32,000 bases of DNA, taken from an uncultured Clostridia bacterium. Its GTDB lineage: Bacteria > Bacillota > Clostridia > TANB77 > CAG-508. Each line of letters opens with the position of its first letter. Positions within the stretch are counted from its first letter, which is position 1. Shown one piece after another: positions 17,106 to 17,211 of the stretch. A model generated the notes under the pieces. It ran no database searches. It saw only the letters and a program-made list of their open reading frames with translations, and had not been told where the DNA came from. The translations under genes and the position numbers were made by a program. The DNA lies in the NCBI GenBank assembly GCA_947581825.1, contig CANPVP010000001.1:7606-39605 (forward strand). The letters run 5' to 3'.

Positions 17106-17122
17106 TGTCGAAATGTGTCGAT
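17106..17122 (+). promoter_or_regulatory. Tandem Spo0A-box pair (TGTCGAA-N3-TGTCGAT)
   Basis: An exact 0A-box heptamer plus a one-mismatch copy at a 10-bp register, in the divergent intergenic region between the sigma-like gene and the XRE gene. Confidence 0.55.
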
Positions 17123-17194
17123 ATAAAAATGATTAAATATGAGAAAAAAAGCAACTCAATCTTTGTAATAATTGATATTTAAGCAATAACAAAA

Positions 17195-17211
17195 ATCGAC
17201 ATACTTCGACA
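17195..17211 (-). promoter_or_regulatory. Tandem Spo0A-box pair, inverted copy (ATCGACA-N3-TTCGACA)
   Basis: The reverse complement TGTCGAAGTATGTCGAT matches 17106-17122 at 15 of 17 positions. It lies ~100 nt upstream of the XRE start codon. Confidence 0.55.

Follow-up and report, generated by a model that had tools for sequence, protein, structure and literature searches.

A 32,000-nucleotide stretch of DNA from an uncultured Clostridia bacterium (contig CANPVP010000001.1; hereafter the window) carries an integrative and probably conjugative element, and in the 440-bp control region of this element lie two inverted pairs of heptamers that resemble 0A boxes, the binding sites of Spo0A. They stand between an operon that begins with a gene for a sigma-like protein and leads to the recombinases, and a divergent gene for an XRE-family protein, the gene context given in the original prediction, which had proposed Spo0A as the binder. 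The boxes exist as described, are not a product of chance and have been conserved in evolution as cis-elements of the divergent control region. We give an even chance to the proposal that they are sites for the phosphorylated Spo0A of the host, which would account for the motif, for its geometry and for the activator-type position of the left box. Which protein binds, in which direction it regulates and where transcription starts are all inferred from sequence.

The left pair, TGTCGAAATGTGTCGAT, occupies positions 17106-17122 and the right pair, ATCGACATACTTCGACA, positions 17195-17211. The reverse complement of the latter, TGTCGAAGTATGTCGAT, matches the left copy at 15 of 17 positions, as was originally noticed; the mismatches are confined to the 3-bp spacer, and the heptamers are the same and in the same order. 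On the minus strand the left pair reads ATCGACA-cat-TTCGACA toward the sigma-like operon, with the promoter-proximal TTCGACA running from 17112 to 17106, and on the plus strand the right pair reads ATCGACA-tac-TTCGACA toward the XRE gene and is preceded by a weak third unit, AATAACA (17185-17191). The degenerate heptamer TGTCGAW occurs five times in the 32 kb, four times in the control region and once at 18082, in agreement with the earlier count by eye: the exact core TGTCGAA starts at 17106, 17205 (minus strand) and 18082, and TGTCGAT at 17116 and 17195 (minus strand). The heptamer at 18082 had been listed on its own; it is present, and it has a tandem-like partner that had been missed, the full site being TGTCAAAAATTGTCGAA at 18072-18088 (minus strand, TTCGACA-att-TTTGACA; site 3 below).

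The window has 25% G+C, and the heptamer total alone is unremarkable, with a mean of 2.14 in shuffled sequence and at least five copies in 7 of 100 shuffles. The arrangement is another matter. At least three heptamers within 110 bp were found in none of 5,000 first-order Markov simulations, a tandem heptamer pair with a 3-bp spacer appeared in 0.06% of such simulations, and the Poisson expectation for the cluster of four in 110 bp is about 2e-7.

The DNA-binding domain of Spo0A is highly conserved. Its 7-bp core is TGTCGAA, in which G2, C4 and G5 are contacted; Spo0A of C. difficile and Spo0A of B. subtilis recognise this core alike (PMC3485338). Spo0A sites pair a consensus box with another box at a distance of 3 bp (PMC2731898), and it was on this geometry of two direct repeats that the original prediction rested. 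The window boxes have the core with its three contact positions, and the proximal boxes match TGTCGAA at 7 of 7 positions. Direct repeats with a 3-bp gap, the second box often being imperfect, are found at 17106-17122, 17195-17211 and 18072-18088. Other Firmicute motifs (the CcpA cre, CodY, SinR and Rex consensus) were considered and rejected by eye, as was a LexA site at site 3, where a half-site CGAAC stands without its second half.

To follow the boxes beyond the window, related loci (numbered with an L) were collected. A search with the XRE protein gave two genome loci, from metagenome-assembled genomes labelled 'uncultured Clostridia bacterium', and 29 metagenome loci; these collapse to 16 distinct control regions, and six more from a divergent sigma-like clade bring the total to 22. 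Host labels are Clostridia, Clostridium sp. and Clostridia bacterium. In the alignment the boxes form conserved islands (0.8-0.9 of loci) amid variable flanks. Every core position of the left proximal box is kept in 13-15 of the 16 loci, and those of the right proximal box in 10-15 of 16, C4/G5 most often being changed to TG. The prediction had called for a test of enrichment. In the 16 loci, exact TGTCGAA/TTCGACA is 124-fold denser between -300 and -60 of the XRE start than in the rest of the DNA (30 in 3.84 kb versus 14 in 223 kb). The boxes fall at fixed offsets of about -201, -179 and -102 relative to that start. Tandem boxes with the 3-bp spacer recur in L012, L036, L041 and the promoter of a receiver-domain gene in L026, and in most other loci the second box is reduced to TG/CA. 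Variants of otherwise perfect boxes at the degenerate position 3 also occur, namely TTCGCCA (L009, L026) and TGCCGAA (L002).

The left box has a fixed relation to a promoter. On the operon's strand the window has ATCGACA-cat-TTCGACA and, after a gap of 21 nt, TATAAT, a sigmaA-type -10 element at 17079-17084 (minus strand, read from 17084 to 17079) that would drive the operon. When we scanned for TTCGACA with up to two mismatches, ACA being kept, at 20-22 nt from TAnnnT, such a box followed by a leader was found in 19 of the 22 distinct loci. The -10 is TATAAT, TATACT or TATATT in 19 of 22, and 14 have an exact TTCGACA at exactly 21 nt from one of these hexamers. The sequence of the 21-nt stretch is poorly conserved and its length is invariant. 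Eight of the 22 loci carry an additional exact TTCGACA about 22 bp further upstream, with an intermediate unit that keeps only the terminal CA; the array is thus strong-weak-strong, and further boxes follow 10-11 bp (helical) phasing. No conserved -35 at 17 bp was seen in the aligned control regions, and a simple sigma-70 promoter scan of 16,883-17,308 returned nothing, consistent with promoters that have no canonical -35. The conserved helix of the operon leader starts 7-10 nt downstream of the -10, which supports the placement of the transcription start.

This layout is not restricted to the operon promoter. Within the window, TTCGACA-N21-TAnAAT with at most one mismatch is found at the leftward promoter and at site 3 only, where TTCGACA-att-TTTGACA is followed after 21 nt by TACAAT (18050 to 18045, minus strand) and, downstream, by a 100-aa gene of unknown function on the same strand (17976 to 17674). 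In L026, TTCGCCA-tat-TTCGACA, 21 nt and TATAAT precede the stand-alone receiver-domain gene. Site 3 is specific to the window and was dropped as a conserved feature: in other loci the homologues of its downstream gene stand behind an integrase-like gene and are free of boxes. In B. subtilis, the promoters of spoIIG and spoIIE reportedly have a well-matched -10 together with a -35-like hexamer displaced to 21-22 bp and 0A boxes that overlap this hexamer, so that their transcription depends on phosphorylated Spo0A (work of York and Satola, both 1992, and of Baldus, 1994, with their colleagues). The leftward promoter fits this layout of spacing and overlapping boxes. The B. subtilis promoters belong to chromosomal sporulation genes.

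The proximal box next to the XRE gene lies inside a second element. A perfect palindrome, ATACTT-CGACA-AAGTAT (17201-17217), is centred on it and is a candidate operator for a dimeric helix-turn-helix (HTH) protein. It occurs once in the window in exact form, and its arms are conserved in 14-15 of 16 loci. L043 retains the arms around a centre that is not a box (GTATACTT-TAATA-AAGTATAC), which argues that the palindrome is an independent operator that usually embeds a box. We consider ATACTT-N5-AAGTAT probably the operator of the XRE protein. A one-mismatch copy, ATATTTACATTAAGTAT, lies at 16241-16257, between the second gene of the operon (HTH_16) and the small gene o139, and may be a second operator or a chance occurrence. 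The right proximal box stands 28 nt from a conserved TATAtT in nine of 16 loci, which in the window is the candidate -10 of the XRE promoter (TATATT, 17240-17245, plus strand); five loci have a weak TAAAGT or TACAGT at 21 nt. The most conserved intergenic block, AGTATATATTGyTTTTnnnAAAGAATATAAAATATACA (17236-17275, plus strand), is an imperfect inverted repeat just before the ribosome-binding site (RBS) of the XRE gene. Its per-column conservation is 0.9-1.0, the box-less L002 and L011 included, and it is a candidate for a second XRE operator or for the core promoter.

What binds the boxes has to be decided among several candidates, and it can be said at once that a chance cluster, or conservation through recent common descent alone, is effectively refuted. 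The heptamer total taken by itself is not significant and the related loci are homologous, so that some conservation is inherited; however, the simulations never reproduced the cluster, the boxes stay exact where the flanks and the 21-nt spacer have diverged and the neighbouring proteins are only 40-70% identical, and the spacing is invariant. Binding by the XRE repressor, which the original prediction had offered as its alternative, is unlikely. Divergent control regions of mobile elements usually hold the operators of their own repressor, the XRE-family protein SinR is able to bind tandem repeats, and the XRE-side box does sit inside the conserved palindrome. Yet operators of XRE/Cro-CI proteins are expected to be inverted half-sites that co-occur with the repressor in all related elements; this form is seen in the palindrome and in the 17236-17275 block, whereas the boxes are direct repeats and are missing from L002 and L040 despite an unchanged XRE helix. 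That helix reads ERYIGQLERGE in the box-bearing L023 and L030 and ERYVGQLERGE in the box-less L002. With the same helix at loci with and without boxes, the XRE operator should be universal, and the boxes are not. The arms that persist in L043 indicate that it is the palindrome, not the box, that tracks the XRE protein; no such palindrome accompanies the left box, site 3 or the promoter of the L026 receiver gene; and L036 has perfect left boxes with no HTH_3 (XRE-type) gene on record beside them. Thus, of the XRE alternative, what stands is a candidate operator at 17201-17217, and the repressor is disfavoured as the binder of the boxes. The element also encodes a Spo0A-like response regulator of its own (28706-29431, plus strand), named earlier as another possible binder. 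It has Response_reg and Spo0A_C domains and its paralogues recur in related elements, but it is very unlikely to bind the boxes. Against the Spo0A equivalog model TIGR02875 it scores 78.5 bits, the cut-off for an orthologue being 200, and its alignment by HMMER to the Spo0A-DNA complex 1LQ1 ends ahead of the recognition helix. Where Spo0A has the conserved helix SRVERAIRHAIEVAW, verified against 1LQ1, the paralogue has QTIKWTLRKFIISMI; in the window, L004 and L009 an IKW-type motif, NP(Q/S)xIKW(T/A)(L/I)xK, takes the place of the VER-type TASRVERAIRH. Moreover, the gene is cargo in an FtsX/ABC-transporter cassette that is found also in another context, and in most box-bearing loci no paralogue was found in the flanking DNA, which reached at most 10 kb to each side of the XRE gene or of the gene for the sigma-like protein.

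The main competitor is an activator encoded by the element, which we regard as a serious possibility, although less probable than host Spo0A. Its most likely form, the sigma-like protein with or without the HTH_16 protein, would recognise the boxes at its own promoter and at a few others, and the 0A match would be a coincidence aided by likeness to a -35 hexamer. The paradigm is Tn916, in which Orf9 represses, Orf7/Orf8 auto-activate Porf7 and transcription reads through to xis-int (PMC5812530). The gene order here is that of Tn916, with the XRE gene facing sigma_r4, HTH_16 and then a recombinase; the box is always accompanied by the sigma-like and HTH_16 genes, its TTTGACA variants include a perfect TTGACA, and the sigma-like protein has a weak NCBIfam match to 'positive control sigma-like factor'. 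The first 16 loci, in which L002 and L011 are divergent and box-poor, hinted that the boxes co-vary with this protein; the idea was dropped after wider sampling, since L036, L038, L041, L042 and L043 keep the box architecture with an L002-type helix. Indeed, the region-4 helix CSDSVTRIKKRAL is identical in loci with perfect (L038), absent (L002) and degenerate (L040) boxes, and the main clade, with helix SKTVSKIKIRAI, uses the same heptamer. The same heptamer is found where sigma-like proteins are only 39-50% identical and their region-4 helices differ, and two sigma-like clades with different recognition helices share it at 42-45% identity; the o139 helix is the same with and without boxes. 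A heptamer that stays unchanged while the neighbouring element regulators diverge speaks for a binder that does not vary. At a constant 21 nt, the distance to the sigmaA-type -10 exceeds the reach of direct -35 contact by proteins of the sigma70 family, and phased tandem boxes with a 3-bp spacer are unexpected for a sigma factor. In addition, a tblastn search with the sigma-like protein (E <= 0.01) found no relative in 72,556 plasmid and 50,697 phage records.

Several observations weigh against host Spo0A. The boxes TTCGACA and TTTGACA resemble the -35 hexamer TTGACA and could be recognised by a region-4 HTH, and TTTGACA, a frequent variant, alters the contact position G5 of the 0A box. Because Orf7/Orf8 of Tn916 activate their own promoter (PMC5812530), the Tn916-like gene order leads one to expect a self-activation element at precisely the position of the left box. 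Since every locus was retrieved by way of the XRE or the sigma-like protein, a candidate element-encoded binder is present throughout and the presence or absence of boxes does not separate it from a host factor. L002 and L040 belong to the family without having boxes, and they call for a separate explanation. On the right, conservation of the spacer TAC and of the flank AAGTA (14-15 of 16 loci) equals or exceeds that of the box itself, which assigns part of the conservation there to the palindromic operator. The comparison with spoIIG and spoIIE, finally, serves as a lead rather than as a test.

If host Spo0A is the binder, a simple scheme can be proposed. A dimer of phosphorylated Spo0A would occupy the left ATCGACA-N3-TTCGACA, its proximal box 21 nt from the sigmaA -10. 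As reported for spoIIG and spoIIE, a good -10 without a proper -35 at 17 bp means that RNA polymerase would need an activator. Spo0A would then switch on the operon of the sigma-like and HTH_16 genes and, through it, the recombinase or integrase genes, after which the operon product could sustain its own expression in the manner of Orf7/Orf8. On the right, the proximal box would lie within what is probably the XRE operator, and phosphorylated Spo0A and the XRE repressor may compete or cooperate at the XRE promoter. The net effect would be to couple the element's switch to entry into stationary phase or sporulation, and the recurrence of the boxes across the family suggests that these elements sense the sporulation decision of their host. 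There is a small chance that the matter goes further, and that this is a large family of chromosomal elements of gut Clostridia triggered directly by host Spo0A, with excision or transfer timed to the onset of sporulation and with Spo0A-derived cargo feeding back on the host pathway. Under that proposal phosphorylated Spo0A would both drive the spoIIG-like promoter of the sigma-like auto-activator and recombinase genes and compete with the XRE protein at a composite operator, a box inside a palindrome, and the cargo would consist of paralogues with re-targeted DNA-binding helices or of receiver-only decoys expressed from the same type of box promoter. Where such an element is inserted in a DD-carboxypeptidase gene, excision triggered by Spo0A would repair that gene as well.

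Control of ICEBs1 passes through RapI-PhrI and ImmR/ImmA, and direct Spo0A boxes are not known from its switch region. ICEBs1, whose activation depends on the developmental state of its host, is comparable in that it is an integrative conjugative element, that it resides in a spore-former and that its biology is bound up with the timing of sporulation (PMC8032392). Nearest of all is the precedent cited in the original prediction, which is borne out: in the phages phi29 and Nf, TGTCGAA boxes for the host factor lie between divergent promoters of the switch region, with a consensus box and a partner at 3 bp, and they are conserved within phage groups (PMC2731898). There, however, Spo0A represses the early promoters and keeps the late promoter from being activated, whereas here the left box is at an activator position; those are lytic Bacillus phages and this is an integrated, conjugation-type element of Clostridia; and binding is proven in the phages and proposed here. 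Tn916 was compared by gene order, which is shared: an XRE-type repressor gene is divergent from sigma-like and small HTH_16-type genes, and the operon reads through into recombination genes, so that auto-activation is expected (PMC5812530). On the other hand, the sigma-like protein of the present element has no detectable relative in the plasmid and phage collections, there is no tet(M) attenuator, and the recombinases are serine or tyrosine enzymes depending on the locus. The present family is marked by its 0A-type boxes and by a structured leader of 200 nt. We found no report in the literature of 0A-type boxes in integrative or conjugative elements.

Many gut Clostridia pass between hosts as spores. 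If the boxes are Spo0A sites, widespread integrative elements would couple transfer or excision to the sporulation decision, in a family that comprises hundreds of protein clusters from human-gut and animal metagenomes (378 + 226 clusters for the sigma-like protein). Such a link is documented to date from a few Bacillus phages only. Since sensing of host Spo0A by a mobile element is already known, what would be new is the activator-type promoter, the large family of Clostridia elements and the co-occurring Spo0A-derived cargo. The tandem box, 21 nt and -10 would then be a compact, testable promoter on which to study Spo0A-dependent activation in uncultured Clostridia, and the recurrence of Spo0A-like genes in these elements would be explained. 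If instead the binder is encoded by the element, what remains is the core promoter of a family of elements that has been little described. Whichever protein binds, the analysis has defined the family's conserved core promoter, the probable operator of its repressor, the structured leader and a frameshift conserved in its recombinase.

The structured leader is the 5' segment of about 200 nt ahead of the sigma-like gene (16868-17072, minus strand). Its RBS, GGGAGGAA, lies inside a stem, and a long-range helix joins the 5' end to the segment before the RBS. The minimum free energy is -62.9 kcal/mol (z = -6.8), and the helix has 24 consensus pairs, nine of them with compensatory changes, across 14 loci. 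An Rfam search of the leader and control region gave no credible family, only a plant miRNA model at E = 0.19. A leader segment, GUGUUCCUC, is able to pair alternatively with the RBS (GAGGAACAC), and an internal segment, GAAAGGAGGUUUU, is conserved; possible functions are those of a translational switch and of a leader-peptide device.

The operon begins with a sigma70 region-4 protein of 135 aa (16460-16867, minus strand), followed by the 59-aa HTH_16 protein (16291-16470, minus strand), whose gene adjoins the sigma-like gene in every locus. The HTH_16 Pfam family also matches residues 16-64, at the region-2 end, of a full-length ECF sigma factor encoded at 18321-18899. With one piece resembling the region-2 end and its neighbour carrying region 4, the pair may be a two-piece, or split, sigma factor. 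Two small genes, o79 and o139, lie between the HTH_16 gene and the second recombinase. In the other direction the 115-aa XRE protein (17309-17656, plus strand) is followed by the 100-aa gene on the minus strand, the ECF sigma gene together with the gene beside it, and genes for a Gp3-like directionality factor, an AAA ATPase, DUF3846, a single-stranded DNA-binding protein (SSB), PcfK and PcfJ, and then by the Spo0A-like regulator and FtsX-type transporter genes. The same contig encodes, outside the window, coupling-protein fragments, SpoVG and a thioester/SpaA surface protein. The related elements share a common core, with o79, o139, HTH_16 and the sigma-like gene on one side and, on the other, the XRE gene followed by cargo that varies and by a conserved stretch running from o120 to PcfJ. 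Megablast of 11,800-32,000 against the plasmid and phage collections gave no match.

Full-length Spo0A paralogues are also encoded in L004 (10666-11340) and L009 (12807-13478). The window cassette (28706-31952 and beyond; see also L034 and L035) consists of the paralogue, FtsX, a 401-aa protein and an ABC ATPase, and recurs in another genomic context. The receiver-only protein of L026 (3492-3872), which lies behind tandem boxes, has Spo0A receiver domains as its best PDB matches.

The host genes at 1-11.1 kb of the window include those for PurM, a deacetylase, an NFACT protein and CvpA. The nearest named PurM homologue has 81% identity and carries the label 'Clostridia bacterium', and an NCBIfam search of the window's host genes gave nothing diagnostic of sporulation. 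A gene for a D-Ala-D-Ala carboxypeptidase (Peptidase_S11, 11377-11832) is cut off after about 151 codons, where it adjoins a serine recombinase gene. A related element in a different host, L009 (3722-4276), is inserted at the same place in a carboxypeptidase gene that is 62% identical.

The sigma-like operon points toward the integrase in every locus examined. Serine recombinases stand beside the regulatory module in the window (11895-15083), L009, L023 and L041, and tyrosine integrases in L025, L036, L038-L040, L042 and L043 (recombination genes at 5830-7386 in L025 and at about 4200-5400 in L036-L043). That one regulatory module is found with either type argues that the switch module is swapped independently of the integration module. 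In the window there are two large serine recombinases on the minus strand, the first at 11895-13466 and the second, at 13757-15083, split into ORFs of 64 and 359 aa with a junction at 14889-14910. Omitting C14903, a +1 shift, in GTA-AGT-C-GGA-ACT recovers an in-frame canonical DDGVSGTTFDRPGFNRLI...VITKDLSRLGR, and the domains are intact in both halves. The 12-mer GTAAGTCGGAAC is identical in three elements (the window, L041 at 4785-4805 and L009 at about 7280-7300), whereas flanking synonymous sites differ. The split looks like a conserved, perhaps programmed, +1 frameshift at a rare CGG codon rather than a decaying pseudogene.

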